DNA from: Gemmatimonadota bacterium
Lineage (GTDB): Bacteria; Gemmatimonadota; Gemmatimonadetes; Gemmatimonadales; Gemmatimonadaceae
Length of the DNA stretch: 64,000 bases
Reading direction: 5' to 3'
Assembly: GCA_016719105.1 (NCBI GenBank)
Contig: JADKAQ010000046.1
Span: 518,272-582,271, forward strand
Shown here: piece by piece, positions 12,302 through 33,029 of the stretch
How positions within the stretch are numbered: the stretch's first letter is position 1
Layout of the letters: every line of letters begins with the position of its first letter
Notes under the pieces: generated by a model
Told to the model about the DNA's origin: nothing
The model's database searches: none
What the model saw: the letters and a program-made list of their open reading frames with translations, nothing else
Made by a program: the position numbers and the translations under genes

Positions 12302-14632
<2,331 letters not shown>

Positions 14633-15265
14633 CGACGAAGCCCTCCCCTCGGGGCCGGCGCGCGACGCCGGGCGCGCGCACGGCGCGCGACGCGCCCGTG
14701 CGGCGCATCGCTCAAGGCGTCGTTCGATGTCGGCGTGCCACGTGCGTGCATATCGCCAGACTCGCGACTTGTGAGGGAAACGAACTCGGAGGCGCCGTGC
14801 GACCCGGGTGCGTCCTGTCCGTCGGAGAAGCTGCGCACCGGTTGTCGGCGAATCCGAGCAACCTCGTGCGGAACACAAATAGTCGGAATTACGCGTTAGG
14901 TGTCAATGATGCACTCCGCCACCGGATTAACGGCCGCTCAGGAAGCGCTTTCACAGGGGGGGGCGCATCGCCGAGTTTGCATCTCGGTCCTACTCGAACG
15001 GGTGGGGACGTGTCGCGTGCACCTGACGCCCGTTAGGTGCAAGCGGGAGGGGACGATGGGGCACACGTCGTGGTAACACCTCAGCAACAGCTCCGCCTCG
15101 AACCAGTGGCCGCGCATGTTGCAGGTGACGGGGTGGCAGGTGCGGAAATCCCGTTATGCGATACACCGCTTTTGTAGTTTCCCGGCGTCTTCGCCCCGAC
15201 TCGTCAACTCGCCGAGCGCCGGGACGCCCCTGGGGGGGTCAGGGAGCGTCGCAGTGGTACGGCCA

Positions 15266-16690
15266 CTACCGAGGCGGCGGCACCGGCGTCCGAAAGCCGC
15301 GCGCCCCCCCTGCCCACTCCACCGCGAGTCCGCGCGCACGGAGTCGCGCGATCAGCGCGTCGTGCTCGACCTGATAGGGGAGTGCGCCGTACACCGGCGA
15401 ATACAGCCAGCGATGGGCGGGTGAGTAGACCGCGAGCGCCCCGGGGGTATCGGGGAGGTCGATGGGTTCGAGCCATAACGAGTCGCTCCCGATCCTCACC
15501 CAGCGACTCGTCGTCACCGGTGTGGCCCTGGACCAGCGCGCGGTGCCGACGATCTGCCGCAGCATGCGCGTGGCCCCGCGGGCGGTGTAGAGCGGGAGTC
15601 GCTCGTCGACAAACCAGCGGGCGCCGCCGTTCCCTGTCGAGGTGCGCGCCGCGATCCCCGCGGCCACCGGGGCCCCGGTTCTTCGGGCGAGCCACTCGGC
15701 GGCGTTCCGCGCGGCCCCCGCCGCCTGCCCCGTCTCGATGAGGACCCACTTCCCGCCCACCTTCAGCGCGCCGGCGGCCCCGATCCAGGGAGAGAACGAC
15801 GCGAAGGCATCGCTTTCGATCTTCGTCGAGTCGAGCGGCACCGCCCACATGGGGCGACGCTCGCTCAAGAGGAATCGCTGCACGACCGAATCGGCGATGG
15901 CGAACGAGTCGGCCGGCGCCGGTGCATTGATCGTGATGGCGAGCGATGTCATGCGCTTGTAGGGGCGCCCCACGCGTCGCACGTCGCGCTGCCGAGGGTA
16001 CAGGATCCCCGGCGCAACGCGCCCCCAGGCGGAGTACCAGATCTCCACTTCCTGCTCGCCCCAGGGGGCGAGGCCGAAGTCATTGGTTTCGTCGGCGACG
16101 AAACGGACCATGGCCGGCAGTCCATCGGTGGAGCGCATGAACCAGATGGCGGGGAAGCCGTCGACCGTGGTGGCGATGCGGGCGTGGATGACACCGTCGA
16201 TGGTCGTGTCGGCGAGGGTGCGCAGCCCGCCGGCGTCGCGCGCCAGGAGCAGCATGCGTTCGGGGGCGAAGGCGAAGAGCTCCCGGCGCTCGTCGACGTA
16301 GGCGATGTTGAGTGGCTGGATCTGCTGCTGGTTGTTGGGCCCGGTCGCGGTGCGCCCGCCGACGGTATCGCGCACGATGTCGACGCTGGAGCCGCTGCCG
16401 GGGAGGAAGGTGCGCGTGTTGCGCCACGCGTTGGTGGTGTAGTCGCGCAGGTCGACGTGGCGTTCGTACGACGGGGCGTCGGCATACGGGTGGTCCCCGA
16501 AGGCGGTGCGTTGCCAGCTCGTCATCACATCCTGACGCAGCGACGTGATGGCTCGGAGCGCCGGCTCGCCCCCCATGCGAGTGACGGCGCGTTCGATGAG
16601 GGCGACGGCGCGTGGGGCGTTGGGGCGGGGCTGCGCGGCGACGGAGGAGGCGATGGACGTCAGCGCGAGAAGCGGGGCGATGCAGCGCAT
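15266..16690 (-). CDS. secreted hypothetical protein
   Basis: Start ATG 16688-16690 gives the signal peptide MRCIAPLLALTSIASSVAAQ. 474 aa with normal composition and no motif I can name. Confidence 0.55.
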   Translation of the reverse strand: MRCIAPLLALTSIASSVAAQPRPNAPRAVALIERAVTRMGGEPALRAITSLRQDVMTSWQRTAFGDHPYADAPSYERHVDLRDYTTNAWRNTRTFLPGSGSSVDIVRDTVGGRTATGPNNQQQIQPLNIAYVDERRELFAFAPERMLLLARDAGGLRTLADTTIDGVIHARIATTVDGFPAIWFMRSTDGLPAMVRFVADETNDFGLAPWGEQEVEIWYSAWGRVAPGILYPRQRDVRRVGRPYKRMTSLAITINAPAPADSFAIADSVVQRFLLSERRPMWAVPLDSTKIESDAFASFSPWIGAAGALKVGGKWVLIETGQAAGAARNAAEWLARRTGAPVAAGIAARTSTGNGGARWFVDERLPLYTARGATRMLRQIVGTARWSRATPVTTSRWVRIGSDSLWLEPIDLPDTPGALAVYSPAHRWLYSPVYGALPYQVEHDALIARLRARGLAVEWAGGARGFRTPVPPPR

Positions 16691-18967: not shown

Positions 18968-19006
18968 GGAGCGCAGGCGCGTCACCTACGCGAGCACCTG
19001 CGCTCC
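18968..19006. terminator. 10-bp-stem hairpin between convergent genes
   Basis: GGAGCGCAGG (18968-18977) pairs with CCTGCGCTCC (18997-19006). It lies between the dinB-like stop (18951) and the vapC stop (18986) and has no U-tract. Confidence 0.35.
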
Positions 19007-19384
19007 TTCGAGTTTTCCGAGAGCGCGATCGAACGTCACGACTCGCAACGTGTCGCGATCGTAGTCGGCGTGGATGAGCCGATCGATGAATCCCGGCTGC
19101 GACTTCGCGACGCTTCGCGTGGATGCATCGGCGAGAACCGCGCGTGCGACACCGGTCGTTCGAAAGTGTGAATCACTGACGAGCGCGAGCAAGGTGCGCA
19201 CCGCATCGGCGTGCGGCACCTCGTAGTGATGCCGAAGCGCGAAGTACGTCTCGGCGATCACCAGGTCGGAGATGACGACTGGCGAAGGAGACGCCGCCAC
19301 GAACTCTCGGGCGGCGGTCGCCTGCTCAGTGGACACACCCGTGAGTAATCGCAGGGTGACGGAGGTGTCGAGTCCAGCGCTCAC
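18986..19384 (-). CDS. vapC: PIN-domain ribonuclease toxin (VapC-like)
   Basis: GTG start at 19382-19384 overlaps the antitoxin stop as GTGA. N-terminal LDTSV acidic motif, internal ISDLVIAETYF and C-terminal DRLIHADY are consistent with a PIN fold. 132 aa. Confidence 0.8.
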   Translation of the reverse strand: MSAGLDTSVTLRLLTGVSTEQATAAREFVAASPSPVVISDLVIAETYFALRHHYEVPHADAVRTLLALVSDSHFRTTGVARAVLADASTRSVAKSQPGFIDRLIHADYDRDTLRVVTFDRALGKLEGAQVLA

Positions 19385-19662
19385 GTCTTTCGCTCGCGGG
19401 CACGACCGCGCGCGACGCTGGCGCGTACGGCCTCCATGGAATGGTCCTCGACGGTGTTGCCGTATTTGGCGAGCGCACCGAACCAGCCGGGCTTCCACTC
19501 CTGCTGGGTTCCGGCGGATGCGCGAGCGCTCACGCTTTCCGGCGCGTCGAGGATGTAGCGCACCCCCTCGGCGACCAGCTCGCGGACCGTTCGCCCGCGA
19601 CGGGCGGCTTCCACCTTGAGGCGGCGATAGAGCGCTTCGTCGAAATCGATGGTCGCTTTCAT
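19381..19662 (-). CDS. vapB: ribbon-helix-helix type II antitoxin (VapB-like)
   Basis: MKATIDFDEALYRRLKVEAARRGRTVRELVAEGVRYIL is a typical RHH/CopG N-terminus. 93 aa, immediately upstream of the PIN gene. Confidence 0.75.
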   Translation of the reverse strand: MKATIDFDEALYRRLKVEAARRGRTVRELVAEGVRYILDAPESVSARASAGTQQEWKPGWFGALAKYGNTVEDHSMEAVRASVARGRARERKT

Positions 19663-22103: not shown

Positions 22104-22484
22104 TCAGGTGCCGAAGCCCAGTTGCTGCGCGACCTTGCGCTGCTGCGCGTCGAGCGTGAGGAAGGTGATCTCGGTGGGGTCGTTGGCGAGGTAGAGTGCG
22201 CAGGCGAGGTGCCAGCAGTCGGCGCTGCGTGTATAGCCCGCGTCCAGCACGCGCTGGATCTCCTCGCTCAGCGGACGCGCTGGGAGGATCCACTGCAGGT
22301 CGGCCAGATCGACCTCCTCGTGTGAAATGCCTTCGCGCAGCAACGCGCTTCGCACTTCGGCCTCGAGGAGCGTCGACGCGTACAACCGATCGAACCCCGA
22401 GAGGCGCTTCAGCAGGGGCGTGGCCGCTCGTTCGCCCAGCGATATCGCGACGACGCACGAGCTGTCGACGATTGCCGCCTTCAC
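22104..22484 (-). CDS. vapC: PIN-domain toxin (VapC-like)
   Basis: GTG 22482-22484 overlaps the antitoxin stop (GTGA). IVDSSCVVAI acidic N-motif, EAEVRSAL, D-C-W-H-L-A and LTLD are consistent with PIN catalytic residues. Confidence 0.8.
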   Translation of the reverse strand: MKAAIVDSSCVVAISLGERAATPLLKRLSGFDRLYASTLLEAEVRSALLREGISHEEVDLADLQWILPARPLSEEIQRVLDAGYTRSADCWHLACALYLANDPTEITFLTLDAQQRKVAQQLGFGT

Positions 22485-22768
22485 TCGCGTTCCTTGATGA
22501 ATCGCTTCAGTGCCCCCGGGCGACGCGCCACCGCGCGAAGCCCGACTGCGGTCCCAGGCTTCCGGACCGCGGGCGTGACTTCGCCGCGCGCTTCCATCTC
22601 CGCGAGGCGCTGTTCGAGCGTCTGTTGTTGGGGGAGTGTCTCGATCGGGCGCAACTCCGCCGCGGGTTGACCATGCACCGTAATGACGATGGTGCGTCCC
22701 TCACGCACCTGCCGGATCAGCGCCGAGAGTTTCGCCTTGGCGTCGTACAGGGAGTATTCATCACGCAT
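22481..22768 (-). CDS. Phd/YefM-family type II antitoxin
   Basis: SLYDAKAKLSALIRQVREGRTIVITVHGQPAAELRPI is the canonical Phd/YefM N-terminal domain. Confidence 0.85.
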   Translation of the reverse strand: MRDEYSLYDAKAKLSALIRQVREGRTIVITVHGQPAAELRPIETLPQQQTLEQRLAEMEARGEVTPAVRKPGTAVGLRAVARRPGALKRFIKERE

Positions 22769-23964: not shown

Positions 23965-23998
23965 CGAGGGCAGTTCGCCATGTGCGACGCTGCCCTCG
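23965..23998 (+). terminator. 9-bp-stem hairpin downstream of the oxidoreductase gene
   Basis: CGAGGGCAG (23965-23973) pairs with CTGCCCTCG (23990-23998). No U-tract. Lies at the left edge of the AT-richer island. Confidence 0.3.
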
Positions 23999-24187
23999 AA
24001 TCGCGGTTGTATCTGGTCTCTTCTCAAATGCCCTCAGTTCGTCCGACCAACCAGACCCTAGGGGTAACCCTGGTGTTCAGTGTCAGACCTTGGTCGTATG
24101 GTAGGGGTTGCCACGCTCTACCTGTCTGAGCAGCACCGGCCTTTGGTAACCGACGCCACCGTTTCCACCGAGTTGGGAGGCGATTCG

Positions 24188-26107
24188 ATGTGTGCGGCAG
24201 TCTGGCACTTTCGCCGAAAGCGACCGAGTGACACCGCCAGAGATCCCATTTCGTCCGAATTCTTCGCGGACGAGTCGGTTGAGGATGCAGCTCGAGCTCT
24301 CGTGCGCGAGTCGATTCAGAATTCGCTCGATGCTCGTTTGAAGAACCGAGACGATCCGGTTGCCATTCGTGTGTTTATCGGCGTCAACGGGGGCGCCGCC
24401 CTTCCGTCGACAGCGGCTCGATTCTTCGATGGGGTTTGGCCTCACTTGGGCTCGAAGCGAAGCGGACTTCAATCTCCGCCATCGCCAAGAGATCGATGCA
24501 GCTTCCTAACCATCGAGGACTTCTCCACGACGGGTCTGGAGGGCGACCCGGATGAATGGACGCCGAAGGCGGGCAAGCCAAATGCCTTCTATTCGTTCTT
24601 TCGCGCCGAAGCCTACTCCGAGAAGCAGGGGGATGATCGGGGCCGGTGGGGTGTTGGCAAACTGGTCTTTCCGAGATCCAGCAGGGGAAGCTGCTTCTTT
24701 GGGCTCACCGTTCCAATCACTACCGGCCAACCCCTGCTCATGGGGCGGATGATTCTTCGCCATCATGAGGTCGGCGCTCACGAGTACGTCCCTGACGCCA
24801 TGTTCGGCGTTAAGAAGCTCCTTCACAACGACCCCGACTTTGTCGCGCCGTGCACTGACACTCAAGTGCATAGGGACTTTCGGCAGGCTTTTGCAGTCAA
24901 GCGAACCACCCAACCCGGCTTGTCCGTCGTGGTCCCGTGGCTCGACGACGAAGACTCCTTCACGCTCGACGCGCTCACCAAGGCAATCGCCGCCGAGTAC
25001 ATGCTGCCTGTCCTTCGTGGGCGACTCGTCGTTACGGTCGAAGACGGCGCGAAGAGCCACAAGATTGATCGAGATACGCTTCTCAAGTCTTCCCAGAAAT
25101 GGATCGACGAATCCATCGCAGATCTTCTGAAGCTGGGCATCTTTGCTTCGCGGATCGACGCAAGAGACGTCGTACAGGTGACATCCCCAGATCAATCGAA
25201 CGCTCCCAAGTGGGCCGACAAGGCGCTCGCCGACGACGTGATCGCATCGTCCCGCGCGAAACTCGAAGGTGGTGATCCTGTCGCCTTCGAAGTTCCGATT
25301 ACGGTCCACCCGAAGCAGGGCGCCGCCGGCAGATCGCGCATGAGAGTGCACATGATCGAGGCCGGCCAAGAGGCTTCGAGTACGAGCCCGGTCTTCGTTC
25401 GTGAAGACATAACGGTAACGGGTGCGAGGGGCACACGAGTGCCTGGCTACGTGAGCCTCGTTACGATCGATGATGGTCCGCTTGCCACGCTCCTGGGAGA
25501 CGCTGAGAATCCCGCCCATACGGAATGGCGCCACCACACACGAGGCTTCCGGGAAAAGTATAAGTACCCTAAGGCATTCCTCACGTTTGTTCGTGAGGCC
25601 CCGCACAACCTGTTCAGCACAATCTTCAAGGATGCCTTGGAGGAAGATCACTTCGCGCTCGGCGCATTCTTTCCTGATGTGCGAGCCGACAGTGACGCTC
25701 GGGCAAAAGGCGGCGACAAGAAGAAGCGCCAGAAACCAGGAGTGGATACAGACGCGCCACCGCAACTCGAGAAGAAGCCACGACGACATGGCTTGCGTCA
25801 GGTGGACGGAGGATTCGAGGTAACGGCGGGCGACCCAGGTGCGCAGCGTCCCTCACTCATACGGATCAGAGCCGCATATGACGTCCGTCGCGGAGATCCG
25901 CTCAAACGCTACGAACCGTTTGATTTCGATTTCTCGTCTGGGACCATGGACCTGAGCTTCGAAGGTCTTAGGATCAAAGTTGCCAATGAGAACGAGGTGC
26001 TTGCCGAAGTCATATCGGACGACTTTCGATTGCGCATCACCGGGTTTGACAGCAATCGAGATGTGTTCGTGCGCGTGACGCTGCCGGAGGGTCGCGATGA
26101 GCGTTAG
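24188..26107 (+). CDS. GHKL (Bergerat-fold, Hsp90/MutL/MORC-like) ATPase-like protein, 639 aa - gene A of a three-gene operon
   Basis: ATG 24188 is preceded by GGGAGG 7 nt upstream; the ORF is also open from GTG 24080. N box RESIQNSLDA, G1-like TIEDFSTTGLEGD and G2-like GRWGVGKLVF occur in the canonical order. Lys-rich linker KGGDKKKRQKP. The C-terminal ~400 aa is unassigned. Confidence 0.7.
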   Translation: MCAAVWHFRRKRPSDTARDPISSEFFADESVEDAARALVRESIQNSLDARLKNRDDPVAIRVFIGVNGGAALPSTAARFFDGVWPHLGSKRSGLQSPPSPRDRCSFLTIEDFSTTGLEGDPDEWTPKAGKPNAFYSFFRAEAYSEKQGDDRGRWGVGKLVFPRSSRGSCFFGLTVPITTGQPLLMGRMILRHHEVGAHEYVPDAMFGVKKLLHNDPDFVAPCTDTQVHRDFRQAFAVKRTTQPGLSVVVPWLDDEDSFTLDALTKAIAAEYMLPVLRGRLVVTVEDGAKSHKIDRDTLLKSSQKWIDESIADLLKLGIFASRIDARDVVQVTSPDQSNAPKWADKALADDVIASSRAKLEGGDPVAFEVPITVHPKQGAAGRSRMRVHMIEAGQEASSTSPVFVREDITVTGARGTRVPGYVSLVTIDDGPLATLLGDAENPAHTEWRHHTRGFREKYKYPKAFLTFVREAPHNLFSTIFKDALEEDHFALGAFFPDVRADSDARAKGGDKKKRQKPGVDTDAPPQLEKKPRRHGLRQVDGGFEVTAGDPGAQRPSLIRIRAAYDVRRGDPLKRYEPFDFDFSSGTMDLSFEGLRIKVANENEVLAEVISDDFRLRITGFDSNRDVFVRVTLPEGRDER

Positions 26108-26852
26108 GCATTTCAACTATACGCAGCGCAAGCGTCTGCTTCACGCCGACACGAGCATTGCACTCTCTCGTCGCGCCGAAGAGGTCTCGTTCGACGTGCA
26201 ACTAAGGCTCGGCAACTACGAGTTTCCTGGCAACTCGGCCGTCGTTGTGGAGGCGTACCGGCAGACAAGCCTGCGACGCTACTCCTTTGGCACGGCGGCC
26301 AGCCCTAGTCCGCGAGACTCGACGCGTCTCGATGGTTTTCCTGATGTCGAGTCGCTGCTGTTTCGCGTCAAGATCATCGACCCTGCCAACGGAAAGCTGC
26401 TGGCGGAAGCGGATAAGATAAAGCCAGTAGACCCGGACGGCGGTGAACGACCCTCTCTGCTTCGTGTCAGGTCAGACAACCTCTCCGGCGAGGCCTGGAA
26501 ACTCGCATTCGAGGACGATCACCCCGTGCTTGTTATCGAAAAGAGCTACGGCCCCTACCAGTCCTTGCTCGCCTCACCTCATTTCCGCTGGCTAGTACTT
26601 CCGCAGCTCCTTCGATCACTCCTCAAGCGAGCCATGCTTGAAGATCTCGACGAGCTTCTCGACGAGACTTCTTCTTCGTGGCAAAATGCGGTAGTGCGCC
26701 AAGCACGAGTGTTAACTGGAATGAACCCACCTGACGGAGACGACGAGCAAGAAGTCGACGATTGGATTACATCTGCCGTGCGCGCCTTCTGCAGACGCCA
26801 CGGACTAGCACAACGGTACCACGCAGATGTGTTTGGGGGAGGCGAATCGTGA
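26097..26852 (+). CDS. hypothetical protein, 251 aa - gene B of the operon
   Basis: ATG 26097 is preceded by GGAGGG and overlaps the gene A stop by 11 nt. Acidic C-terminal half (LEDLDELLDETSS, DGDDEQEVDDW). No recognisable motif. Confidence 0.6.
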   Translation: MSVRHFNYTQRKRLLHADTSIALSRRAEEVSFDVQLRLGNYEFPGNSAVVVEAYRQTSLRRYSFGTAASPSPRDSTRLDGFPDVESLLFRVKIIDPANGKLLAEADKIKPVDPDGGERPSLLRVRSDNLSGEAWKLAFEDDHPVLVIEKSYGPYQSLLASPHFRWLVLPQLLRSLLKRAMLEDLDELLDETSSSWQNAVVRQARVLTGMNPPDGDDEQEVDDWITSAVRAFCRRHGLAQRYHADVFGGGES

Positions 26853-27571
26853 ATCTTCGCGAGTTCAATGCGGAGGGTATTCAGGAGGCGCACTCCTTTC
26901 TGGAGCTGTTGCGCACAGGGGAATCTCTACCGACACCCTACCAGCTTCTCGAAGACGACGAACTTTCGTCCGAGTTGCCCGTGTCGTTGAAAGGGCTCGC
27001 ACATTCGTTCGAATCGAGATTCGAAATGGCGCTACGCATGAACACCGTGCTAGCGCCGGTTCTCAACTCACCGCGAGCGGACAGTGTCGGTATGTGGACT
27101 TGGCTCGCGCTGCTATTCCTCGATACGCTTGCACCGCAAAAGGCCAACGGATCTCGAAAGATCGGAGACCAGGCGTTGTACATTCTAGAGCCGGACAACT
27201 GGCGTCGATATTATCGCCATCTCTTGGCGGGTCCTTGTCGCGTAATGCGCGCACACTGGGACGAACTTCACGTCACTCAGGCGATACTTGCAGGTAAGCC
27301 AAGCGTCCCGGGAGAGCTCTACGAGCAGATCGCTTCGCGGCAGGAGGTAATCACTAGCGCCGCGCTCCTTCGTTTGACACGCCGACTTTATTGGGACGCG
27401 TCCACGAAGGGGCTCAAGCGCGGCGCAGCCTCGAAAGGGGCCGGGAGCGCACGGCGACTTGCGGCGCTCTTGCTGCAACTGGATCTGACTTGGGACTTCA
27501 TCGAGATGACAGACGACGCGATGATTAAGCTGCTTCCGACACGCGAGTTTGCGCGATTCACTGGCGCATGA
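26849..27571 (+). CDS. hypothetical protein, 240 aa - gene C of the operon
   Basis: GTG 26849 overlaps the gene B stop as GTGA and is preceded by GGGGGAGG (an in-frame upstream ATG at 26762 is less likely). No recognisable motif. Confidence 0.55.
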   Translation: MNLREFNAEGIQEAHSFLELLRTGESLPTPYQLLEDDELSSELPVSLKGLAHSFESRFEMALRMNTVLAPVLNSPRADSVGMWTWLALLFLDTLAPQKANGSRKIGDQALYILEPDNWRRYYRHLLAGPCRVMRAHWDELHVTQAILAGKPSVPGELYEQIASRQEVITSAALLRLTRRLYWDASTKGLKRGAASKGAGSARRLAALLLQLDLTWDFIEMTDDAMIKLLPTREFARFTGA

Positions 27572-27657
27572 GAGGGTCGCGCCGCGGAAGCCCGGATCGC
27601 CAAGTTCACGTCACCGAGTGCAGGTACCAGGTGGCACTGGATGCCCTACGATCGTCA

Positions 27658-28891
27658 TCACGACTTGCATTGACGTCGCGTTTCCAGAATGAAACGTTCA
27701 AGCGAAAGCACGCGTTCGCGAACAGTCGTGGGATAGCTCTTGTGGAGTGACTTGGGAACGACCAGCACCACCCCCTCCTCCGTCATCTCGCGAAACTGCT
27801 CCTCCGACACCCCCTCCTGCAGCGTCAGCAGTGCTTCATCTCCACCCGTCGCGCCTCATTCAGAATCTGCCGCCAGCGGTCCTTCACCGTCGTCTTCGCG
27901 GCAAGCATGCGCAGCTGATCGTCCCGCCGATTCCCATCCCAGTAGCTCTCGATCGACGGAAAGATGAAATCCGGCTTCCGACTCCCCTCGGTGTGCGCGC
28001 CGTGAGAGAACGAGAGACCCTCCTCCCGGAAGATCCCCGCCAGTTGCAACTCGAGTGACCGTCCGGACCGGCTCTTTCGCCGATTCGTCACCGTGTGCGC
28101 ATACTCAGGAAGGCTTCGACTGAGTCGAAAGGGTGCTGCAATCGCGGAAGCACGTGGTGTGCCTCGACCGATCGGAACATCTCGTATTCGCACTGCCGTC
28201 GGCGCATCAGTCGATCGTCGGCCGCAAGCGCGCGCGAGCTTGGTAGGCTCTCGATGACGCGCGCGATAATTTCGTCCCCTGTGGGTATTCGTGCTTTCCA
28301 CGATTCCGGCATCGTCGCTGCCGTCAACGCACACGGGCGATCAGCTGCGATCAAGACGTCTGACAGCAGGACGCCCGTTGAGGTCAGCACCAGGCCTACG
28401 CCTGGCTCTATTGGCCCGACGCGATCGACGATACGATCATGTTCCTCGAGATTCCGCGATATCCAAACGCGCAGTCCATCGGCATCGCCCGCACCGATGC
28501 GGTGGTACGCGAAGACGACCAGCGAGCCTGTGGATTCGGAGGACACGACTGGAGCGTCTGTTGCTCCCCAGCGCGTCAGCCGCGCTTCATCGCGCCCGTT
28601 AGGTTGGCCCAGGCGCTTGGAGTTGTACCAGACGAGGCGAAGATTCGTCGTGTAGTCGCCGTGCGAATCGACGATCGCGTCGAAGAAGAGATCGGGGTTC
28701 TCTTCTCGCTCCGCACGATGGCAGAGGTGCGGGAAGACCACACGCAGCACCTCCTTGGCGACGTACGGACCGCCCTGGTGCACGTTGGCCTTCGCGTAGG
28801 TGTCGTTGGCCGACAGGTACTTCACGTACCAAAGCCAGTCCGACCCGGACACCTGTTCGAACCCCTCCGCGAGTTCGTTCTCCTCAGCCAC
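27658..28891 (-). pseudogene. EcoRII-family type IIE restriction endonuclease, interrupted by two frameshifts as sequenced
   Basis: Collinear with my recollection of EcoRII across three frames: WLWYVKYLSANDT, LTRWG, RRRQCEYEMF, FDSVEAFL // AHTVTNRRKSRSGRSLELQL, RKPDFIFPS, LRMLAAKTTVKDRWRQILNEA // LLTLQEGVSEEQFREM, VVLVVPKSLHKSYP. Shifts near 28104-28112 and 27828-27834. GTG start 28889-28891 overlaps the vsr stop. Confidence 0.85.
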
Positions 28892-29315
28892 CCTTCCCGC
28901 TCCCCGGTCGCGCTTGCTGAATTTTGCGCTTGAGCGCAGCGAGGCGGGAGGGGGAGAGACTGCATTCCCAGACAACTATCGGCGTCCAGCCGAGTCGGCG
29001 CAGCTCGCGCAGGTTGCGGCGATCCCTGGCGACGTTCTGGGCAAACTTCGCGTGCCAGAATTCGCGGTTGCTCGAGGGAGTCGTGGCATATCGACACGAC
29101 GAATGTCGATGCCAGAAGCAGCCATGCACGAGGACTGCGACTCGATAGCGAGCCAGTACGACGTCCGGACGCCCAGGCAGATCGCGTCGATGCAGCCGAA
29201 AACGAAACCCCTCTCGATGCAGGAAGCGCCGGACGGTGAGTTCCGGCGCCGTATCCTTGCCACCGATGCCGGCCATCATCCGGCTGCGCGTTGCGCGGTC
29301 GACGATATCGGCCAC
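28884..29315 (-). CDS. vsr: very-short-patch repair endonuclease
   Basis: From GTG 29313-29315: VADIVDRATRSRMMAGIGGKDTAPEL...GRPDVVL...VLVHGCFWHRH...REFWHAKF..NVARDR...GW.(I)VVWEC aligns motif-for-motif with E. coli Vsr. Starts 1 nt after the dcm stop. Confidence 0.9.
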   Translation of the reverse strand: MADIVDRATRSRMMAGIGGKDTAPELTVRRFLHREGFRFRLHRRDLPGRPDVVLARYRVAVLVHGCFWHRHSSCRYATTPSSNREFWHAKFAQNVARDRRNLRELRRLGWTPIVVWECSLSPSRLAALKRKIQQARPGSGKGG

Positions 29316-29316
29316 G

Positions 29317-30642
29317 TCAGTCCGCGGCTTCGAACTCCAGCGAGAGCTGCCGGCGACGTGGGCGATAGGCCTCACCCTCAAGATGCGGGCGCATCGCGGC
29401 CGCGATCGCCTCCACCAAGGGAACCACGACCGAGTTGCCGAACTGGCGATAGGCCTGCGTATCCGAGACGGGGATCTCCCAGCGTCGGTCGCCGCGGTCG
29501 AAGCCCATGAGTCGCGAGCACTCGCGCGGCGTTAGGCGACGCGGATTGCCGCTTCCCGCTTCACGAGGATCTCGGAACCGTCCTTGTAGTATCGTGCCGA
29601 CAGTGTTCGGGCGATGTCGTTCGGTCCCACGAGCCCGAAGCCGAAGCCGTTACCCTTCGCGCGATGCTTGTCCGCGTAGTCCTGCAAGTACTTCCACAGA
29701 TGATCGGTGAGGACGTACTTGGCGTGCGGGCGTCCCTTCGCGTCGATGAAACGGTCGTCCGCCACCCCTGCCTCATCCTTGGAGTGTAGGATGTCCCGAA
29801 GCACGGGCCAGTGCTCCTGCGCCGGGATGGCCACGTCCTCCCAACTGAAGTCAGTGTCCTCTCGGAATCCAACCAGGAAGATTCGTTCGCGGTGCTGCGG
29901 GACAAACGCGCGTGCGTTGATCACCTTGGGCCAGACGCGATAGCCGAGCTTTTCCTTCAGCGTCCGGACAATAACTGCGAACGTGCGACCACCGTCATGT
30001 CCCTGCAGGTTCTTCACGTTCTCGAGGAGAAACGCCTTCGGGCGATGATGCTCGAGGATTCGTTCGACCTCGAAGAAGAGCGTCCCCTGCGTCTCGCACT
30101 CGAAGCCGTGCTTGCGACCGAGTGAGTTCTTCTTCGAAACGCCGGCGATGCTGAACGGCTGACACGGAAAGCCGGCGAGAAGGACGTCGTGCTCCGGAAT
30201 GTCCTCCGGAGGCGACCTTCGTGATGTCGCCGGCGATGTGATGATCACCGAAGTTCGCGCGATATGTGCGCTGCGAGTGCTCATCCCACTCGGACGTGAA
30301 GACGCATTGTCCGCCGATCGACTCGAATCCGAGCCGAAGGCCGCCGATACCAGCGAAGAGATCAATGAACCGAAACGAGGGTGGCGATTCGCGCACCACA
30401 CTCACCTTCGGTTCGAGTCGGCGCCGCAGCTCCGCGAGTTCGAGCGCGCTGGGTTCGTGCTTGCCGCTCTCCCAGCGTTTCACGGTCGCGAGCGAACAGT
30501 CCGCGACCTTCGCCAGCTGTGACTGGGAAAGGCCGTTGCGGATGCGCAGGTCGTGCAGCTCGATGGCGACCGACGGCTTAGCGGGTTTTCTTCGGGCGGA
30601 AGGCACGGTGACAATCTGACACCGAGTTGTCCCGTGGGGCAA
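29317..30642 (-). pseudogene. dcm: HTH-fused DNA cytosine-5 methyltransferase (Dcm/M.EcoRII-like), interrupted by two frameshifts as sequenced
   Basis: Frame 1: XRE-type HTH (LRIRNGLSQSQLAKVADCSLATVKRWESG) then motif [11 protein letters not shown]. Frame 2: motif [13 protein letters not shown] (LLENVKNL), QHRERIF. Frame 3: [16 protein letters not shown] and motif [12 protein letters not shown]. Shifts near 30200-30216 and 29541-29565. Start TTG 30642 or GTG 30606. Confidence 0.85.
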
Positions 30643-30809
30643 GAGCCACCCGACGTCTGCTCATCTCTCCGCCGCGCAGTGCTCAAGCGATCAACAGGAC
30701 TCGACGCCTGGCACGCACGCCCAGTTGCGCCATCTAGCGATCCCGCGACTCTGACCCACGACGCGACGCCCGCGATGTCTCGCCAATGTCGCAGCCATCG
30801 CAACCCCAA

Positions 30810-31481
30810 ACCGACGCCCCATCACCGTGTTCCGATCCAACCTACGGCCCAACCGACAATCACTCGCCGAGTACTGATCTTCCTCCTCACCCAACCGACG
30901 CCAAAGCGCCGTGTCCCGATGAGCGACCGCACCTAACCGATGATCGCTCGCCTTGTTCTGATCATCCGAAACGCCGTATCGAGGCGCGCACCCCGTGCGC
31001 TGATCATCGGTCGCGCTCCACCGAAGAACGCGCGCCTCATATCGATGACCGGCCGCACCAGACCGACGATCGCTCGCCACGTTCTGATCGTCTGCAACGC
31101 CCAACCAACGTGAGCGCGCGGCGAACCGATCCTTTGTCACGACCTACAGGCTTTGGGTCACTTTGTACTGATCATCCGTCGCGCCCAATCGACGCGTGTT
31201 CGCGGCGTTCTGATGGCCCGTCACACGTGACCGACGAACGAGCGTCGCGTACCGGCCCTCTATCACCCCGAACTGAGGGTCTGCCACGCCACACCGGTGA
31301 ACGAGCGTCGCGCACCGCTCCTCTCTCACGTTCAACAGGCGACGGCGCGCCAACTGGTCATCATTCGTCGAGCCACATCGACGACAACGCAGCGCGAACA
31401 CATCCTCGCGCGAGCCCGACGCACGCGCACACGGCACATCTACATCCTCGCGCGAGACTCACCCGCGCTCACGCACGACAC
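30810..31481. repeat. degenerate 42-bp tandem repeat array, about 16 units
   Basis: Unit starts (ACCGAC-like) at 30810, 30852, 30894, 30936, 30978, 31020, 31062, 31104, 31146, 31188, 31230, 31272 and 31314, with CATCCTCGCGCGAG at 31401 and 31443. Best-matching units are 30936 and 31062 (ACCGAyGATCGCTCGCC...TTCTGATCrTC). There is a 21-bp sub-period and eight GATC sites. Confidence 0.85.
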
Positions 31482-31949
31482 TGACGTCAACCCGTCAGTT
31501 GACAGTCGATCGCGCGCGACACGCATTCGCGCCAACGTTCACAGAAGATCGACGCGGCACTTCGACCCGCGAATCGTCAGCGCGAACGAGCCCTCGCGAT
31601 TCGATCGACGACCGTCGCGCGATCGCTATCGCTCGCGCGTGTGCGATGGCACCGACCATCTCGCCCGATAACGCCTTCCGTACGGCACGCGGAAGTCGCG
31701 GCAAACGAACGCCGAGGCGCTATCCGCCGCCCACCATCCCCGGCCACAGTTCCTCCCCTGGCACGATCCCCCTGAGGAAGGCCGCCATCGGCAGCGCGGA
31801 AATCACCCCATCGCGCTCCGCCACCTCGGCGTCGGTGACGGCGATGAGGCGAGCCACCACGCGCTCTTCGTCGAGGACGGCTTTGGACGGCGTTTCCGTC
31901 CAAATCAAGCCGATGTGGACGGTACATCCGTCCAGATCCGGCTTCTTGG

Positions 31950-33029
31950 CTACTCGCCACCCCCCGCCACCTCCCACCGCGCCCCACGCCCCCGCCCAAG
32001 ACACCGCACCTTCCCCTCCCGCTCCAGCTCCTTCACCACCCGCCGCACCGCGACCATCGACGCCCCCGCGACTTCGGCGCCGATCTCGGTCAGCGCAAAC
32101 CGCTCCCGCCCCGGTCGCATGACAGCCACGCGCACCCGCTCGTCCACCGAACCGGCGTCGTCCAACGACAGCTCGCCCTGTGGCGTCTCACGCACGATGG
32201 ACGGTGGCGGTGCTGCGCGATGAGCCGCACACGCCACAAAGAAGCGGTGCGTCCACTGGTTGGCCAACTTGCGATTGCCGGCGAACACGATCGGCAGTCG
32301 AGGATGCATCACCGTGAGCTCGGCCAGCGCGCGAGCCACGAACGGGGCCGGCCAGCGCCCCTCCAGGCGCTTCTCGTCGATGAAGTCCGCGTACTGCGCC
32401 TCCACCACCAGCGCACTCCACGCGTACTGCCCCAGGTGCGCCAGCGCGTGGTGCAACGCCTGGATGGCGCCGAGGTCACCCAGCAGGTTGTCGAACGACT
32501 TGCGCTCGACCACGGCGGCAATGCGCTCTCCATCGAGCAGGGCGTAGTCGCCAGCGGGCAACTTGCGCGTGGTGACGGCCGCTCCCGGAAACTTCCACGC
32601 ATATCGCTCGCCGCTGTCGATCACCAGTTGCAGCTCGGCGTCGCCACCTCTCACCTCGAGGCGGGAGCGCGAGCGGTGGGAGCGGATCCCCGCCTCGGTG
32701 CGAAAGAAGACCTGTTCGTAGCTGCCGGGGCGATCGCGATACGGCTTGGCGATGAAGAGGAACTCGCAGCGCTTGCGCAGCGGGCGGTCGAGGACAATGG
32801 CCAGCTTGCGGCCGAGTTGCGTGCAACTGATGACGGGGACGCGTTCGACGAGCGTCATCGGCTCCTCCGGCTCGGAGCCGTCCTCACGCAGGCAGAAGAC
32901 CTGTTGTCCCGGTCCGGGCCACGCGGCGCTTGCGCGCACGGCGAGCAGGGTGCGCCCGTCTCGTTCGACCGCCACGCGGAAGGGGAAGCGGGGGTGGGTG
33001 GTGCGGTGCACGGTCCAGTGGGTGGTCAT
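31950..33029 (-). CDS. ERCC4 (XPF/Mus81-type) nuclease-domain protein with C-terminal winged-helix region
   Basis: 359 aa. LVIDSGERY ... LPAGDYALL ... AAVVERKSFDNLLGDL matches the ERCC4 signature (D-x-x-E / GDY / ERK-x3-D). C-terminus ASMVAVRRVVKELEREGKV looks wHTH-like. The N-terminal ~130 aa is unassigned. Confidence 0.75.
   Translation of the reverse strand: MTTHWTVHRTTHPRFPFRVAVERDGRTLLAVRASAAWPGPGQQVFCLREDGSEPEEPMTLVERVPVISCTQLGRKLAIVLDRPLRKRCEFLFIAKPYRDRPGSYEQVFFRTEAGIRSHRSRSRLEVRGGDAELQLVIDSGERYAWKFPGAAVTTRKLPAGDYALLDGERIAAVVERKSFDNLLGDLGAIQALHHALAHLGQYAWSALVVEAQYADFIDEKRLEGRWPAPFVARALAELTVMHPRLPIVFAGNRKLANQWTHRFFVACAAHRAAPPPSIVRETPQGELSLDDAGSVDERVRVAVMRPGRERFALTEIGAEVAGASMVAVRRVVKELEREGKVRCLGRGRGARWEVAGGGE

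Follow-up and report, generated by a model that had tools for sequence, protein, structure and literature searches.

What might three tightly packed genes lying beside a restriction-modification (R-M) operon encode, and do they represent a defence system that has escaped description? The question is raised by a stretch of 64,000 nucleotides (nt) from a Gemmatimonadota bacterium (GenBank assembly GCA_016719105.1, contig JADKAQ010000046.1, positions 518,272 to 582,271; hereafter the window, numbered from its first letter), in which three co-directional genes, here termed A, B and C, form a cassette. A sequence-only reading of the window had put this cassette forward as an undescribed, defence-type system led by an ATPase-like protein of the GHKL (Bergerat-fold) class. 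The genes belong to a widespread family that is conserved as a three-gene set, the first product is a GHKL ATPase by its modelled fold, and the cassette is recurrently found next to genes for Dcm-type cytosine methyltransferases and Vsr endonucleases. The three genes are as follows, with lengths in amino acids (aa) and the evidence from open reading frames (ORFs), Shine-Dalgarno (SD) sites, AlphaFold2 (AF2) modelling and Foldseek structural searches in brackets:

24188 to 26107, plus strand: gene A, predicted GHKL (Bergerat-fold) ATPase, 639 aa (ORF, SD site, homologue coverage, AF2/Foldseek)
26097 to 26852, plus strand: gene B, 251-aa partner (ORF, overlap with A, SD site)
26849 to 27571, plus strand: gene C, 240-aa partner (ORF, GTGA overlap with the B stop, SD site)

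The stop codon of A (TAG, 26105-26107) lies within gene B, whose ATG at 26097 overlaps the end of A by 11 nt and is served by a GGAGG SD site at 26084-26088. Similarly, the GTG start of C at 26849 shares a GTGA with the TGA stop of B and is preceded by the SD site GGGGGAGG at 26836-26843. The start of A was revised: GTG 24080, given by the sequence-only reading, is merely the start of the longest ORF, and has been replaced by ATG 24188 on the basis that homologues of A span ~95 % of that ORF and that a GGGAGG SD site occurs at 24175-24180, 8 nt 5' of this ATG. All residues of A are numbered from the Met at 24188. Scans for promoters and terminators gave matches at chance level only.

The comparative data come nearly entirely from contigs of metagenome-assembled genomes (MAGs), and some of the family scans consist of aggregated counts. 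More than 1,400 homologues of A could be distinguished, each of ~640 aa and none with a name. Together with the co-conservation of B and C, this number goes far beyond chance as the source of the three packed genes, and the ORFs, overlaps and B and C SD sites are as the sequence-only reading had claimed. A scan of 185,579 species genomes, with one genome per species, yielded 239 relatives of A, distributed patchily over the Gemmatimonadota, Verrucomicrobiota, Planctomycetota, Chloroflexota, Acidobacteriota, Nitrospirota, Pseudomonadota and other phyla. The closest relative of the window copy comes from an uncultured Gemmatimonadaceae MAG (94 % identity). Genes A, B and C occur in this order in 73 of the 80 loci fetched, five of the remaining seven end at a contig edge, and the complete cassette is thus present in 73/75 loci with enough downstream sequence. 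Pairwise distances across the same 39 loci are strongly correlated with those of A for both B (r=0.92) and C (r=0.87). A copy on a Rhizobium megaplasmid, whose A protein shares only 23-24 % identity, retains the same overlapping layout (670/260/257 aa), and its three products (A', B' and C') are remote homologues of A, B and C in hhalign comparisons (probability 100 %, 98.7 % and 99.7 %, respectively). Going by these distances and layouts, A-B-C evolve as one unit, and their co-conservation across phyla, on which the sequence-only reading had leaned, is borne out by the 73 loci and the Rhizobium layout. Partial loci were observed in Planctomycetota MAGs, where L066 lacks C and L074 lacks both B and C; these may be decayed copies or misassemblies.

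The assignment of A to the GHKL ATPases had been made from an N box and G1- and G2-like boxes, and these are real GHKL motifs, as indicated by their invariance and by the predicted fold. An AF2 model of A, built from 44 homologues (83.8 for pLDDT, the predicted score in the local distance difference test; predicted template-modelling score, pTM, 0.70), retrieved topoisomerase VI-B (Topo VI-B) as the top Foldseek match (E=1e-12 to 1e-9, over ~550-730 aligned columns), although with TM-scores of only ~0.3-0.44 and an identity of 10 %. The next matches were to Hsp90/TRAP1, GyrB, SMCHD1 and MORC3 (E=1e-8 to 1e-6, with MORC3 at 2.5e-6), all of them, like Topo VI-B, at a Foldseek probability of 1.00. 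As the alignments span 500-700 columns, both the Bergerat fold and a transducer-like domain are covered. In the model, GHKL and middle domains (residues 1-480) are followed by a Lys-rich linker (483-521), which is disordered and forms the sole long low-confidence segment, and by a beta-rich C-terminal domain (534-631) for which no sequence relative was found among solved structures in a PDB sequence-profile search. Profile searches with HATPase_c and HATPase_c_3, to which the sequence-only reading had pointed, did not produce a match; no Pfam family, these two included, and no relevant NCBIfam model was matched by A at E<=0.1, and the sequence-profile search against the PDB returned only N-box matches to histidine-kinase ATP domains (E~1). 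Membership of the GHKL class thus rests on fold and motifs, and by its modelled structure A is a GHKL ATPase with the fold confirmed.

The residues that define the ATP site are strictly conserved. Motif I (RExIQNSLDA; E41, N45 and D48), motif II (EDFxTTGLxG; D111, G116 and G119) and motif III (GRWGVGK; G152, G155, G157 and K158) are invariant at all of these positions in 45-47 Dcm-linked and 28 stand-alone cassettes (75 species), with invariance scored among sequences having a residue at the position, and the motifs are retained in the Rhizobium branch. In view of this invariance A looks like an active ATPase. Across the 75 species R405, which may be the basic residue that a transducer/S5-like second domain supplies to the ATP site, is also invariant, as are G542/F543, D579/F580 and G619-F620-D621-x-x-R624 in the C-terminal part (D621 in 26/27 of the stand-alone cassettes). 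The highest conservation outside the ATP site is found in LGD(S/A)ENPAHTxW (residues 436-447; 25493-25528), of which G437, D438, E440 and H444 are invariant in 74/74 species cassettes scored, and the pattern G437-D438-x-E440-x-x-x-H444 is kept in the 23 %-identical Rhizobium homologue. This D-x-E-x-x-x-H motif may represent a second functional site, with metal binding or interaction as candidate roles.

Neither partner resembles a housekeeping family, in agreement with the sequence-only reading, which had recognised no motif in either: matches were lacking in Pfam, NCBIfam and PADLOC, and in the PDB by structure for B and by sequence for C. The AF2 model of B (pLDDT 89.2) comprises an N-terminal beta-sandwich (residues ~19-148) and a C-terminal helical bundle (154-246) with an acidic loop. 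No structural match to this model below E=0.005 was obtained in the PDB or a viral library, and a PDB sequence-profile search gave nothing significant. The modelled fold led to the rejection of B as a nuclease, as a reader of 5-methylcytosine (5mC) of the SRA/PUA type, or as a Topo VI-A-like Toprim/winged-helix protein. The best-conserved motif of B, EAYR, is not retained in the Rhizobium homologue, which argues against catalysis by B, and the protein is probably non-catalytic.

Protein C is likewise a large family, with ~1,900 representative clusters in an exhaustive search, nearly all of ~240 aa. Its conserved residues include W83, W85, R123-H124, Y181, a Gly-rich basic loop (KRGAAGKGAGSARRL), Q210, D216, P230 and E233. 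C has no Pfam, NCBIfam, PADLOC or PDB-sequence match, the PDB search having also been made with a profile of 79 diverse members, there is no DxD/Toprim signature, and no solved Topo VI-A was matched by sequence. A HEPN nuclease assignment (Rx4-6H in 'RIxRAH') was rejected since the arginines are not conserved, and family PF19866, flagged for some homologues in precomputed tables, was not reproduced by Pfam search even at E<=10. Fusions of C were uninformative (P0371 with a sigma70_r4 helix-turn-helix (HTH) domain and P0405 with a zinc ribbon).

In the window, the cassette shares a low-GC island with an R-M and Vsr module, in which the following features could be delimited:

23980 to 31900, no strand: low-GC island with the cassette and the R-M/Vsr module, between host genes (GC 0.58-0.66 versus ~0.69)
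27661 to 28975, minus strand: EcoRII-type restriction endonuclease (REase) gene, in three ORF pieces (Pfam EcoRII-N, E=6e-32; PADLOC REase_II)
28884 to 29381, minus strand: Vsr very-short-patch-repair endonuclease gene, intact (Pfam Vsr, E=1e-28; TIGR00632, 130 bits against a cut-off of 97.85)
29320 to 30660, minus strand: HTH-fused Dcm-type C5-cytosine methyltransferase gene, broken (Pfam DNA_methylase in two overlapping ORFs, and HTH_3; NCBIfam PRK10458/dcm)

The composition profile gives a GC content of 0.58-0.60 at 24-28 kb and 0.63-0.66 at 28-32 kb, with flanks of ~0.67-0.72, and the cassette is thus AT-richer than the core genome, as had been proposed. The adjacent EcoRII, Vsr and Dcm genes named by the sequence-only reading are also present, on the minus strand and convergent with A-B-C; its description of the two operons as back-to-back undersells a Dcm-Vsr linkage that is recurrent and sometimes operonic.

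The extent of this linkage was assessed in 48 loci in which the cassette is flanked on each side by 3 kb of sequence or more. Dcm-type C5-methylases are by far the commonest neighbours, occurring within 3 kb in 32/48 loci and within 500 bp in 26/48, while Vsr is found in 29/48 and EcoRII in 12/48. With M, V and R denoting the Dcm-type methylase, Vsr and the REase, respectively, at least six arrangements can be distinguished: A>B>C>M>V>(R>), M>A>B>C>(V>), A>B>C><V<M, A>B>C><R<V<M (the window), <V<M A>B>C> and A>B>C>R>M>V>. For example, L026 carries a co-directional M-A-B-C-V block in which the cassette is embedded between dcm and vsr, with a 17-nt gap between M and A, a 17-nt overlap between A and B and a 4-nt gap between C and V in the called ORFs, and L010 is similar. 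In Gimesia the order M>V>A>B>C> is found on one strand, with no REase called and with DISARM-like and NERD genes nearby. The REases at the 41 Dcm-linked loci are of the EcoRII (13) and MvaI/BcnI (3) types, and ~25 of these loci lack a recurrent endonuclease family. Distances between Dcm proteins correlate only weakly with those of A (r=0.34), showing no co-diversification; the partners have been swapped repeatedly while the linkage was kept. Neighbour clustering detected no further widely recurrent family, no recurrent helicase, and no co-conserved recombinase, transposase or partition gene.

Several less frequent neighbours were also observed. A PIN/VapC-like ORF of ~147 aa occurs upstream of A on the same strand in seven loci (those listed include L015:9532-9972, L022, L027, L031, L035 and L071), directly 5' of A except in one locus, where it is further upstream. 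A family of ~220-aa ORFs lies directly upstream of A on the same strand in six loci (L012:8794-9462, L021:9277-9939, L038:5517-6329, L048, L079 and L080). Neither is a core component; both could have an optional regulatory role or be toxin-antitoxin genes without a connection to the cassette. In L001 (3495-5273) and L002 (241-2019), a second GHKL protein of 592 aa, which is unrelated, is encoded ~2.7 kb upstream of the cassette, with weak matches to HATPase_c/HATPase_c_3 and to PADLOC TmtA; the locus also contains an MvaI/BcnI-Dcm-Vsr set, and two distinct GHKL ATPases are thus encoded in one R-M neighbourhood. Dcm proteins encoded in the order M>A>B>C are unusually long, at 548-630 aa (L010:8200-10047, L011:404-2233 and L026:8337-9983), and ~175 residues outside the methylase domain of the L010 and L011 proteins match no Pfam family and could form a cassette-specific adaptor.

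The linkage is not universal. No Dcm or Vsr gene occurs within 8-10 kb in 28/80 loci, which mostly constitute whole clades, and the A, B and C proteins of these stand-alone cassettes carry the same invariant residues as their linked counterparts, from which it appears that the cassette is functionally autonomous, with a marked affinity for 5mC modules. Strong PADLOC matches among the stand-alone neighbours include PDC-S11, AbiEi, STK_OB, BrxHI, SngC and type I and II REases. For the Rhizobium branch three flanking ORFs were compared with the PADLOC models, including those for methylases, and none was a defence-type gene.

The window itself allows the fate of the cassette to be compared with that of its R-M neighbours. 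Relative to L007 (~90 % nucleotide identity), the A-B-C coding region contains a single compensated +1/-1 indel pair. By comparison with the intact L007 genes, the EcoRII gene has uncompensated 1-nt deletions at 27831 and 28107, and the Dcm gene has lost 1 nt at 29555 and gained 1 nt at 30208, also without compensation, each gene being split into three ORF pieces. All four indels are located in short homopolymers, and Vsr is intact. The frame-corrected ratios of nonsynonymous to synonymous substitutions (dN/dS) show that A (0.11), B (0.07) and C (0.08) are under purifying selection. Since the values for EcoRII (0.09) and Dcm (0.06) are as low as those of the cassette, the frameshifts reflect either very recent inactivation or assembly error. 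If they are real, A-B-C is tolerated without a neighbouring methylase.

Comparison with the syntenic genome L006 points to island turnover. The host flank gene at 31950-33029 is 79 % identical to its L006 counterpart (14432-15478; ERCC4-like in the precomputed Pfam annotation of L006), while identity is 59 % for A and 68 % for C. The difference between the flank gene and A is consistent with turnover of the island at a chromosomal location that is itself conserved, and going by these identities this location appears to carry diverged island versions, in the manner of a hotspot. The ERCC4-like gene at 31950-33029 was rejected as a nuclease partner, being a host flank gene present in syntenic L006 only. 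At the island edges no tRNA was found, and Tandem Repeats Finder (TRF) detected no tandem repeat. Visible at 30806-31330, however, is a degenerate array of direct repeats whose period is 42 nt (units spaced at 42, 84 and 126; 65-81 % identity among units; core CCnAACCGACG...CGCC.TGT.C.GAT), in a gene-poor stretch between Dcm and the host flank with a strong negative GC skew. This array was missed by TRF, and the stretch could not be aligned to L007. Upstream of the island, two small overlapping gene pairs (22104-22768 and 18986-19662 (-)) were noted by eye only as candidate PIN/VapC toxins with Phd/YefM- or ribbon-type antitoxins.

The only PADLOC model matched by A is PDC-M33A, which was recovered, though weakly, with 44/44 A members (best E=4e-26). 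PDC-M33 is a three-gene cassette (CAS_00129; FAM_02818>>FAM_02838>>FAM_01881; count of 98 in the supplement row) that was assigned as a defence candidate through 'guilt-by-embedding' inside defence or R-M systems, and seven of nine other embedded candidates tested protected against phage (Payne et al., bioRxiv 10.1101/2024.01.29.577857). In the literature library searched, no paper mentions PDC-M33. The likeness to A-B-C extends to three co-directional genes, a first product of ~630 aa (639/251/240 aa in the window) and the embedded habit; the difference lies in B and C, which fall outside every PADLOC model, so that PADLOC would not call the system here. The Rhizobium branch is as distant from the PDC-M33A model as the window cassette, and its B' and C' proteins have no PADLOC match at E<=0.001 although hhalign links them to B and C, for which HMMER may be too insensitive. 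From these profile comparisons, A-B-C is a divergent branch of the three-gene superfamily of PDC-M33.

The claim of an undescribed system therefore stands in part: B and C are in no PADLOC model, but A weakly matches PDC-M33A, and the theme of GHKL ATPases with methylases and Vsr was reported in 2008 (PMC2292703). The cassette is not categorically new, but a divergent variant of a computationally predicted candidate. At the same time, the PDC-M33 candidate is widened into a far broader three-gene superfamily missed by current detection tools, a large multi-phylum family in which all members are annotated as 'hypothetical', B and C are without recognisable relatives, and B is without a structural neighbour.

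Belief and doubt are about equally balanced for the favoured interpretation, namely that A-B-C is an autonomous, horizontally transferred, ATP-gated DNA-clamp module of the defence type, embedded in 5mC R-M loci. By analogy with Topo VI-B, MutL, MORC and Hsp90, A would dimerise through its ATP-bound N-terminal domains, while its C-terminal beta-domain would provide a constitutive dimer contact, giving an ATP-gated clamp on DNA. B, as a beta-sandwich/helical adaptor, and C, which is basic and rich in aromatic residues, would be obligate subunits for target recognition and/or output, and both the sensor/effector label and the defence role proposed by the sequence-only reading are inferences. The cassette is preferentially carried inside Dcm-Vsr modules, with or without an EcoRII- or MvaI/BcnI-type nuclease, and would be co-transferred and co-expressed with them. 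It would most likely serve in anti-foreign-DNA defence or as a back-up, may there provide a second layer or assist the nucleases linked to it, and could also act alone. A defence role is suggested by the kinship to PDC-M33A and the record of seven of nine embedded candidates, by the M>A>B>C>V> embedding in L026, by the DISARM-like and NERD genes in Gimesia and by the PADLOC-positive neighbours of stand-alone cassettes. The patchy spread over phyla, the low GC content and the greater divergence of island genes than of the flank point to horizontal transfer and are likewise consistent with defence.

A number of observations weigh against this interpretation. Its chief weakness, and at the same time what makes the cassette most interesting, is the lack of a visible effector: the A and B models show no fold of a nuclease, protease or NADase, nor any membrane or other effector fold, and C has no sequence match of any kind. 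The cassette is absent from sequenced phages and from IMG/VR viral contigs, and plasmids are nearly devoid of it, the exception being the one distant copy on the Rhizobium megaplasmid. The match of the window A to PDC-M33A (a 627-position model) is weak at 54 bits, none of the 44 B or 48 C members has a PADLOC match attributable to PDC-M33 at E<=1, and PDC-M33 itself is among 145 candidates outside the tested set and without a described mechanism (bioRxiv 10.1101/2024.01.29.577857). Stand-alone cassettes have varied neighbours, most of which are housekeeping genes. Furthermore, the strong, sometimes operonic Dcm-Vsr link could mean a function that is related to 5mC rather than to immunity.

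A function of the latter kind is envisaged if A-B-C acts as a MutL-like helper, which recruits or stimulates Vsr, or handles the T:G mismatches arising from 5mC deamination, in hosts with a foreign dcm-vsr pair. The frequency of Dcm (32/48) and Vsr (29/48) near the cassette, its position between dcm and vsr in tight operons (L026 and L010), the MutL-like domain layout of A, the established MutL-Vsr interaction, and the intact state of Vsr and A-B-C beside the frameshifted R and M genes of the window all fit such a role. It is nevertheless a rather unlikely one, as the 28/80 loci without Dcm or Vsr within 8-10 kb keep every conserved residue, the Rhizobium flanks (three ORFs) have no PADLOC defence-type gene, methylases included, Dcm and A are poorly correlated (r=0.34), and A lacks a MutL or DNA_mis_repair sequence signature. 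To our knowledge, the bulk of bacterial dcm-vsr pairs are without such a cassette, which also counts against a helper role. A closer bond with the methylase is implied where the cassette is taken as the restricting component of a 5mC-based R-M system of a new kind, in which Dcm marks self and A-B-C, in place of an endonuclease, attacks or blocks unmethylated DNA. While the ~25/41 Dcm-linked loci without a recurrent REase family, the Gimesia M-V-A-B-C order without a called REase, the same-strand, near-overlapping M-A or C-M junctions and the proposal of GHKL ATPases as R-M components (Iyer et al., PMC2292703) are in line with this, the stand-alone clades retain fully conserved residues, complete classical R-M sets (EcoRII or MvaI/BcnI) co-occur in 16 loci, A-Dcm co-phylogeny is weak, and there is no nuclease fold in the A or B models. 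Loss of the methylase should, moreover, be lethal for a methylation-protected restriction system, and in the window Dcm is frameshifted and A-B-C intact, if the frameshifts are real. A restriction arm is thus considered quite improbable.

The cassette might also have no part in immunity, being a selfish or maintenance module that stabilises or spreads R-M islands, or a DNA-organising hitch-hiker in variable regions. The missing effector, the mostly housekeeping neighbours of stand-alone cassettes, the absence from phages, viral contigs and almost all plasmids, and the occupation of a conserved chromosomal site in both the window and L006 could be explained in this way. That no recombinase, transposase or partition gene is co-conserved, that purifying selection is strong with an ATPase site invariant over many phyla, and that A-B-C is akin to the embedded-gene defence candidate PDC-M33 and shows the patchy spread typical of accessory defence genes make this very improbable. 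Immunity or silencing free of any nuclease, in which the GHKL clamp A with B and C entraps or compacts DNA alongside cytosine methylation, is decidedly doubtful as well; if true, it would provide a prokaryotic counterpart, and possibly a forerunner, of the methylation-linked silencing by eukaryotic MORC/SMCHD1, as opposed to cut-and-destroy. As no effector is visible, elucidating how A-B-C acts could bring to light an output mechanism that is new for bacterial immunity or for 5mC-linked DNA transactions, and could inform the origin of MORC-type silencing.

Other systems with GHKL proteins differ from the cassette in their architecture. Mza, VcSduA and CapK share the use of a GHKL module in bacterial immunity or in its regulation, but no PADLOC match to a Mza component was obtained and the cassette consists of three genes. 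VcSduA (GHKL-Shedu) consists of one protein, to which a PD-(D/E)xK nuclease is fused (PMC12137116), while CapK, an HTH-STAS-GHKL protein kinase, has CapS as its target (PMC13373217). Identity with Mza, VcSduA or CapK/CapS is ruled out by these architectures, and none has partners resembling B or C. Topo VI-B is the best structural match of A and is an ATP-gated, dimerising DNA clamp, a property that A may share; however, there is no partner of the Topo VI-A/Spo11 type, and B comprises a beta-sandwich and helical bundle instead of Toprim/winged-helix domains. MutL resembles A in the order of GHKL domain, transducer, disordered linker and C-terminal domain, and the adjacency of the cassette to Vsr recalls the stimulation of Vsr by MutL in E. 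coli, a functional interaction given as established in the work cited in PMC2292703. A nevertheless has no Pfam or NCBIfam match to MutL or DNA_mis_repair and no MutS-like neighbour, MutL is absent from its top 50 structural matches, and its C-terminal domain is unrelated by sequence to any solved structure.

The prokaryotic MORC/paraMORC ATPases, which combine GHKL and S5 domains, have been described from predicted R-M operons that also encode cytosine methylases, nucleases of the Vsr superfamily and sometimes EcoRII-like enzymes, and ATP-driven DNA looping, as DNA-manipulating partners of nucleases, has been proposed for them (Iyer, Abhiman and Aravind 2008; PMC2292703). A superfamily-II helicase occurs in about 70 % of their neighbourhoods, and nuclease domains, fused or adjacent, are found in many (PMC2292703). 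By comparison, the cassette has neither a helicase nor a fused nuclease or TIR domain but two dedicated partners instead, and A is structurally closer to Topo VI-B (E=1e-12) than to MORC3 (2.5e-6). The shared feature is an ATPase with GHKL and transducer-like domains encoded alongside Dcm, Vsr and EcoRII, and A-B-C provides a concrete, clonable example of the prediction made in 2008, in which such ATPases were envisaged as partners of cytosine methylases and Vsr nucleases.

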